A stretch of DNA of 7,878 bases from a virus (taxonomy: Monodnaviria > Loebvirae > Hofneiviricota > Faserviricetes > Tubulavirales > Inoviridae), in the IMG/VR virus record IMGVR_UViG_2654587726_000001; one strand, 5' to 3'. The translations under genes were made by a program, and so were the position numbers. The notes under the pieces were generated by a model. It was given only the letters and a program-made list of their open reading frames with translations. It did no database searches and was not told where the DNA came from. Shown one piece after another: positions 1,002-1,138 of the stretch (position 1 is its first letter; the number at the start of each line of letters is the position of its first letter).

Positions 1002-1138
1002 CAAAATTTACCTCTATGTCCTTTCAATAGAAGGTGATTATTCCATTTTTTTTACACCCGCATAGCGCATGCGTATTTACAACACACATTAAATGTGATT
1101 ATGATGCGCGCATGCGGTAAATATATTGCGGTGCAAAC
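1002..1138. promoter_or_regulatory. Divergent intergenic control region between regulator and rep operon; two copies of palindromic 9-mer GCGCATGCG as candidate operators
   Basis: GCGCATGCG at 1065-1073 and 1108-1116 (core CGCATGCG is self-complementary), 43 bp apart, in an AT-rich 137-bp spacer between divergent genes. Promoter -35/-10 elements not confidently assigned. Confidence 0.4.

Follow-up and report, generated by a model that had tools for sequence, protein, structure and literature searches.

What do two copies of a short palindrome do in the gap between a small regulator gene and the replication operon that faces away from it in a filamentous prophage? The question is raised by a 7878-bp stretch of inovirus DNA (the window, 43.6% GC), in which the 9-mer GCGCATGCG occurs exactly twice, at 1065-1073 and 1108-1116, a distance of 43 bp from start to start. 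An earlier note, made from the letters alone, had seen this pair in an AT-rich divergent gap of 137 bp, and proposed it as two palindromic operator sites of a lysogeny switch, with a small ribbon-helix-helix (RHH)-like protein as the likely binder. The repeat and its setting are as described: the gap from the regulator start to the next gene, orf65, measures 134-137 bp and has 37% GC, compared to 43.6% for the window. The palindrome itself, however, is the 8-mer CGCATGCG (1066-1073 and 1109-1116), the full 9-mer not being palindromic. A 10-bp palindrome, ATGCGCGCAT, at 1104-1113, overlaps the right copy.

The prophage and its hosts

The gene content of the window, the chromosomal copies of it in E. 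coli genomes and a dif-like site mean that it is an integrated filamentous (inovirus) prophage, probably of the E. coli dif region. Its genes are listed in Table 1. The regulator gene is divergent from orf65 and the Rep_trans gene, and the Rep protein is 33% identical to RstA of CTXphi in a protein-level search. Near-identical DNA is present in 32-34 of 5426 complete E. coli genomes, including that of the ETEC strain E24377A, and the prophage copies in these genomes are chromosomal in every case and frequently multiple. The regulator region matches up to five places per E. coli genome, an indication that the prophage is present in tandem or otherwise in multiple copies, the usual situation with filamentous phages that integrate at dif. 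A megablast search of the whole window against deposited phages gave no match, and relatives were found only by protein-level searches.

The dif-like site (204-236) reads GGTGCACATAA-TGTGACACGCG-TTATGTTGAAA, with an 11-nt central region and arms similar to the XerC and XerD arms of E. coli dif; canonical E. coli dif gave no match within 3 mismatches. Its place upstream of the regulator is the one at which the attachment site of a CTXphi-type element would be expected. In E24377A the prophage adjoins hipB and a truncated hipA, and hipBA is its neighbour in three genomes. The left edge of the window (1-123, minus strand) encodes the N-terminus of a protein (MTALAAEFFTLDEVNRLKIIQDVIDRR...), a context unlike the hipA side of E24377A. 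At the side corresponding to this edge, the related genome L003 has a pseudogene of an ISNCY-family transposase.

The orf65 gene overlaps the start of rep (ATGA at 1333-1336) and would be the first gene to be de-repressed. Similar ORFs of 64-65 aa precede Rep_trans in Photorhabdus (L011) and Xenorhabdus (L020), while CTXphi has none. The linker of the 543-aa ORF is a (Gly-Ser-Gly-Thr)n / (Gly-Thr)n repeat, at about 4620-4890; its homologue in E24377A is annotated at 1329 bp, and the length of the repeat may differ between copies.

Table 1. Genes of the prophage and predicted elements of the divergent gap (positions in the window)
Feature	Position	Strand	Remarks
Regulator gene	789-1004	-	70 aa from ATG 1001, 71 aa from TTG 1004
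Candidate regulator promoter, extended -10 TGgAATAAT	1037-1045	-	no recognisable -35; predicted start ~1030
Degenerate upstream box CCGCATAG	1058-1065		7-8 bp from the left palindrome
Putative left operator core, palindrome CGCATGCG	1066-1073
TATTTACA, heptad TATTTAC with predicted -35 TTTACA (1076-1081)	1074-1081	+	promoter scan
Position of a third CATGC box in relatives (ACATGC)	1082-1087		decayed to ACACAC in the window
Predicted rep-operon -10 hexamer TATGAT	1100-1105	+	predicted start ~1112
Box 8 bp upstream of the right palindrome	1103-1108		GATGCG here, CATGTG/CATGCG in relatives; overlaps the -10
Putative right operator core, palindrome CGCATGCG	1109-1116		centred on the predicted rep start
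GTAAATA, inverted left heptad	1117-1123		conserved though no rep-promoter element
orf65 (65 aa)	1139-1336	+	start ATG 1139; no Pfam match
Target operon, orf65 and Rep_trans	1139-2532	+	phage structural/assembly genes downstream
Rep_trans (RstA-like) replication initiator	1336-2532	+
Small coat-like ORFs		+	downstream of Rep_trans
pIII-like 543-aa ORF	3616-5247	+	long Gly/Ser/Thr repeat
Zot-family assembly ATPase	5564-6622	+
Secretin	from 6619	+

Promoters, boxes and their conservation

A consensus scan places the best sigma-70 promoter of the gap (10/12 matches) between and beside the two palindromes. It consists of TTTACA (1076-1081), an 18-bp spacer and TATGAT (1100-1105), and is directed at the rep operon, with a predicted start near 1112. 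The left palindrome stops two bases short of the -35, and the right one is centred on the predicted start. After the left palindrome comes the 7-mer TATTTAC, and after the right one its reverse complement GTAAATA; the left heptad includes most of the rep -35. Relative to the predicted rep start, the centre of the left core is at about -42.5, and relative to the candidate regulator start at about -39.5.

The regulator promoter at 1037-1045 is a candidate read from the stacked sequences of relatives, in which a minus-strand -10-like hexamer (A2, T6) occurs in the same register in 10 of 12 lineages. In a PWM scan of the minus strand, this -10 is one of the three best hits in L008, L009 and L011 alone (first base at -33 from the alignment anchor described below), with nearby hits in L019 (-29) and L022 (-34). 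Another leftward promoter, TATATT (1125-1120) with GTGAGA (1147-1142), can be drawn in the window, and finds no consistent support among relatives in the PWM scan; use of the right heptad region as a leftward -10 is a minor possibility. No LexA box (CTGT-N8-ACAG) is present in the gap within one mismatch. Exactly halfway between the palindromes, CACATTAAATGTG (1085-1097) forms a 5+5 inverted repeat. It was considered as a third, central operator and rejected, being unconserved: E24377A has 3 substitutions there, and other lineages are unrelated at this place.

Homologues of the regulator, 60-99% identical to it, were compared in 14 lineages from E. coli, Salmonella, Photorhabdus, Xenorhabdus, Arsenophonus, Gilliamella, Vibrio cholerae pre-CTX and V. 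anguillarum VAI2. A related-locus search gave only 3 of the loci, and the remainder came from exact-protein look-ups. Their intergenic sequences were stacked on a shared ATTTACA (the anchor), for which almost no alignment gaps were needed. This heptamer occurs 59-73 nt from the regulator start in 14/14 lineages. CATG is found at anchor position -7 (left core) in 11 of the 14 and at +36 (right core) again in 11, or in 13 if a shift of 1 nt is allowed. The earlier note had suggested that the motif be looked for in relatives, and there the boxes and their spacing are indeed kept over the 14 lineages, the distance of 42-43 bp between CATG cores being held from E. coli to Vibrio. In the E24377A copy, which is 98.6% identical, the boxes are unchanged while the promoter spacer has 3 substitutions, and the left-box CATG has been lost in Xenorhabdus SGI246.

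Compared column by column, the left palindrome has a mean pairwise identity of 0.77 and the right one of 0.74, similar to the -10 (0.75) and followed by the right heptad (0.68), the promoter spacer (0.48) and the flanks (0.36). The -35 block scores 1.00, in part because the alignment was anchored on ATTTACA. The gap is thus a set of conserved islands, at 1066-1081 (cGCATGCGTATTTACA), at the -10 and at 1110-1123 (GCATGnnGTAAATA), with the rest near 0.36. Some of this conservation is that of the predicted promoter, whose -35 is inside the left heptad and whose -10 is beside the right box. In a simple PWM scan, a promoter of the form TTTACA/18/TATNAT ranks first, in register, in 12 of the 14 lineages.

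Relatives also carry additional boxes. An extra CATG occurs at anchor +8 in half of the lineages (7/14) and, with a relaxed match, YATG or CATG at +28 in 8/14; a further CATG is seen at -15/-14, so that the boxes are paired at 7-8 bp. V. cholerae, V. anguillarum, Salmonella and E. coli (relaxed match) have CATG or CGCAT 7-8 bp upstream of the left box, and a degenerate box at 1058-1065, upstream of the left palindrome, is weakly indicated in the window. The right heptad GTAAATA is present in 11/14 lineages, and absent from both Vibrio phages and the metagenomic lineage GCA_024449815. In most relatives the box at 1082-1087, taken with the heptad, is repeated in inverted orientation at the right site over 14 nt. 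The 9-mers of the earlier note thus mark the right positions, but the putative operator sites appear to be larger, comprising CATG boxes in 8-bp phase together with the inverted heptads TATTTAC/GTAAATA.

The regulator and its alleles

Proteins 60-99% identical to the regulator are found in Escherichia albertii, Salmonella, Gilliamella, Providencia, Xenorhabdus, Arsenophonus and Photorhabdus. It is also 68-70% identical, over 80% of its length, to RstR of a CTXphi (GQ466611, ‘environmental RstR’), of pre-CTX (KR063268) and of V. anguillarum VAI1/2, while being unrelated to the HTH-type RstR alleles. The start of the Vibrio homologue does not match the primers (ET, class, calc, 232, 5, 6, ZJ, ZHJ) of PMC11509585. 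A whole-library profile search returned only 78 cluster representatives, nearly all of 60-90 aa.

An AF2 monomer model, built from a 77-sequence alignment (pLDDT 93.3), has an extended N-terminus (1-15) followed by helices at 16-33 and 39-69, and its structural matches are RHH proteins only (TraM, omega, CopG-family proteins and the RHH domains of antitoxins). Pfam, NCBI-style and PDB sequence searches with the regulator gave no significant match. Among Pfam profiles, ParG (6/77 members, best E 0.019) and PutA-RHH were found below threshold; ParG was also the hit of a PDB profile search (E 0.3), and hhalign comparisons with approximate omega and CopG sequences were not significant. The RHH-like protein of the earlier note is therefore supported at the level of fold, by the model, but not at that of sequence family. 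The N-terminal DTTVRINE is nearly invariant among the homologues. It occupies the position of the DNA-reading strand of RHH proteins, and is presumably that strand, which in this class forms only in a dimer.

A further relative is seen in If1 (L023, U02303.1), a classical non-temperate E. coli phage. Its major intergenic region contains an unannotated ORF (locus 1201-1350, record 5143-5292, minus strand; MATPKRTTMAIVAERKLKLERLAIDAS...) that is 46% identical to the regulator family.

The regulator and its gap move between phage backbones. In the form found in the window, here called type A, the pair is located beside Rep_trans (in the window, Salmonella, Photorhabdus and others), beside a 666-aa ‘replication endonuclease’ in L002, and beside a Phage_CRI/G2P_X_C protein in Gilliamella. 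Since these three Rep types are unrelated, the conserved DNA is tied to the regulator and not to Rep. The same association argues against a Rep-specific origin element.

Conversely, one backbone may carry different regulators. The window's orf65 and Rep_trans backbone recurs in E. coli RIVM_C037166 with a different, 66-aa regulator (type B, WP_001409658), 45% identical to that of the window over the two helices and unalignable in the N-terminal segment. Its gap is without CGCATGCG, and has instead CATGAGGA and CATGAGGT 8 bp apart, with an inverted copy about 80 bp away. In E. coli E100341, an unannotated 60-aa regulator (type C, 42% identical) is accompanied by TGTTAACC, TGTTAACA and CTTTAACA (TGTTAAC-like) in 8-bp phase, and by TGTTAACAGTTTAACA 52 bp away. 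The corresponding phasing of type A is that of CATG at anchor +28/+36 and -15/-7. Three homologous regulators thus have three N-terminal segments and three sets of phased repeats at equivalent places, which is the pattern expected of heteroimmune repressor/operator cassettes.

E100341 has kept a regulator of the window type while the gap belonging to it has been lost. The type C gene (L004, NZ_CM128606.1, 3292-3474, minus strand) and its own gap are inserted between this operator-less regulator and a different rep gene, and such a tandem array of two regulators might give double immunity. Xenorhabdus SGI246 (L020) displays a similar tandem arrangement, with a 67-aa ORF at 2140-2343.

A putative immunity switch

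The palindromes are, with a probability that we put at about 0.8, the core sequences of two operators to which the RstR-type 70-aa RHH repressor encoded by the prophage itself binds. We favour this reading because the sites bracket the strongest sigma-70 promoter of the gap, because the regulator is homologous to annotated RstR repressors, because the repeats co-vary with the regulator allele, and because regulator and gap are inherited as a unit. The lysogeny switch of the earlier note, with the RHH-like protein as its likely binder, is in this way supported by comparison (conservation, allelic covariation and co-inheritance). Points that count against it are the promoter's share in the conservation and the losses seen in single lineages, namely of the right heptad, of the left-box CATG in Xenorhabdus SGI246 and of the gap in E100341. 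Chance is hardly credible as the origin of the repeat in this short intergenic region. If one mismatch is allowed, the number of 9-mer copies in the whole window is not significant alone, and a repeated 9-mer turned up in 2.8% of 20,000 mononucleotide shuffles of the gap, while a repeated 8-bp palindrome did so in 0.15% of them. The real evidence against chance, judging from the stacked sequences, is that position and spacing are conserved across the 14 lineages. An unlikely reading, though less so than chance, is that the sites represent core-promoter context or host-factor sites only, the regulator acting elsewhere or not being the repressor of this promoter. It has in its favour that the most conserved block holds the -35 and that the right box is in the discriminator/+1 region. 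It leaves unexplained the GC-rich palindrome upstream of the -35, which at -39 to -46 is, to our knowledge, no feature of sigma-70 promoters or UP elements, and the presence of the same palindrome again at +1. Furthermore, the hosts range over Vibrionales, Enterobacterales and Orbales, while within one host species the DNA changes together with the regulator allele, and the gap has no LexA box.

Filamentous phages of the Ff group use single-strand hairpins, and it could be argued that the repeats form a hairpin in the ssDNA genome or in a transcript (for minus-strand priming, packaging, or as an RNA element) rather than duplex operators. The two 9-mers do pair in the predicted fold (DNA z = -2.5; leftward RNA z = -3.1), and TATTTACAACATGC and GCATGGTGTAAATA make up a 14-nt inverted repeat in most relatives. 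The two possible stems are, however, mutually exclusive, and about 80% of cells pair in either of them, no more than in column shuffles. In covariation tests of these two alternative single-strand stems, the columns were conserved and did not co-vary; there is almost no compensatory change, and it is the sequence itself, not just the pairing, that is conserved. In the window, the 14-nt repeat has decayed, while perfect symmetry is kept by the upstream palindrome, which takes no part in that stem. As the element also stays with the regulator next to three Rep types and with differing morphogenesis modules, a hairpin instead of operators is very unlikely.

Returning to the two-operator reading, we infer from the arrangement of the sites a scheme of binding, repression, cooperativity and autoregulation. 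The N-terminal beta-ribbon (DTTVRINE) of a repressor dimer would enter the major groove at the CATG-centred 8-bp boxes, and neighbouring boxes 7-8 bp apart (1058-1073; 1103-1116 plus heptad) would allow cooperative binding as a dimer of dimers. The right operator (~1101-1123) would cover the -10 and +1 of the rep promoter and so block initiation; the left (~1058-1081) would abut or overlap the -35. The distance of 43 bp between the cores amounts to about four helical turns, which would put both on the same face of the DNA. Occupancy is expected to silence orf65, rep and the downstream phage genes, which would maintain the prophage state and allele-specific superinfection immunity. The left operator is also about 40 bp upstream of the candidate -35-less regulator promoter; the regulator gene is probably autoregulated through it, and binding at the left site may be required for, or may restrain, its promoter. 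In reporter assays, eight rstR alleles repressed ig-2 promoters in an allele-specific manner (PMC11509585), and by analogy the rep promoter would be repressed allele-specifically by this regulator. The searchable literature yielded no binding or transcript data for the regulator or its close homologues, and nothing relevant on RstR combined with ribbon-helix-helix, or on this E. coli prophage.

As far as sequence comparison can tell, the module is most likely an uncharted relative of the CTXphi immunity switch, in function as well as in ancestry. It shares with rstR/ig-2/PrstA the small repressor gene divergent from an RstA-type (Rep_trans) gene, and a short gap with the rep promoter and the repressor's sites, both predicted here. 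Regulator and gap are exchanged, judging from sequence, as an allelic cassette that would set immunity specificity. Integration at dif, of which the window shows a dif-like site, may be another common trait. The regulator is 68% identical to the ‘environmental RstR’ annotated in CTXphi/pre-CTX records, and their ig-2 has the same boxes. The El Tor and classical RstR proteins are, in contrast, helix-turn-helix proteins of ~112 aa, with long non-symmetric operators and LexA as co-repressor, whereas here a 70-aa RHH protein is accompanied by short CATG palindromes and a gap without a LexA box. LexA co-repression is a property of the El Tor allele of CTXphi and not of the whole kind. Other differences from CTXphi are the E. 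coli host, the extra orf65 before rep and the lack of ctxAB.

The RHH-type RstR family is common to E. coli (mostly ETEC), Salmonella, insect-associated Enterobacterales and Orbales, and the environmental CTXphi/pre-CTX alleles of V. cholerae. For this family, no description of an operator was found in the searchable literature, and the present work provides a concrete map, from sequence, of promoter, operator and repressor. In E. coli there would be at least 3 heteroimmune alleles, with clearly different boxes on similar backbones, making up a compact natural system for studying how an RHH beta-strand is re-targeted to new operators. The map could help to predict superinfection immunity among dif-integrating filamentous prophages, and leaves the general picture of filamentous-phage lysogeny unchanged.

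Among RHH repressors, binding to short repeats is found in omega of pSM19035 (7-bp heptads), MetJ (8-bp metboxes), Arc/Mnt, CopG and TraM (sbmA), and boxes phased at 7-8 bp are the pattern expected for cooperative dimer-of-dimers binding by such proteins. The regulator is like them in its small size and, presumably, its beta-alpha-alpha topology, and all three allelic putative operators have boxes in 7-8 bp phase, direct or inverted. It is unlike them in its much longer helix 2 (residues 39-69), and in having no significant profile match to any RHH Pfam family or PDB chain. The putative operators also differ from the arrays of RHH repressors in being placed 43 bp apart around a promoter, and not contiguously.

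There is some likeness to lambda OR (PR/PRM) as well, in that an operator is located between back-to-back promoters, ~40 bp upstream of the candidate start of the repressor gene; lambda CI activates PRM from about this distance. The fold is a different one, there are two putative operators rather than three, the regulator promoter is only a predicted one, and, unlike in lambda, no Cro-like antagonist was identified. An unlikely extension of the two-operator reading is a dual role, in which the sites act as duplex operator/promoter and also as an ssDNA hairpin, or in which the left operator activates the regulator as in lambda. The hairpin could have its basis in the double use of TATTTAC as the -35, and in the mirror GTAAATA at +6 to +12, taken with the CATG boxes. 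If the hairpin version were true, the element could be, for instance, a priming or packaging signal or a repressor-only site, and would couple immunity to the replication of incoming ssDNA; if lambda-like activation were true, a minimal two-operator RHH module would make up a bistable switch.
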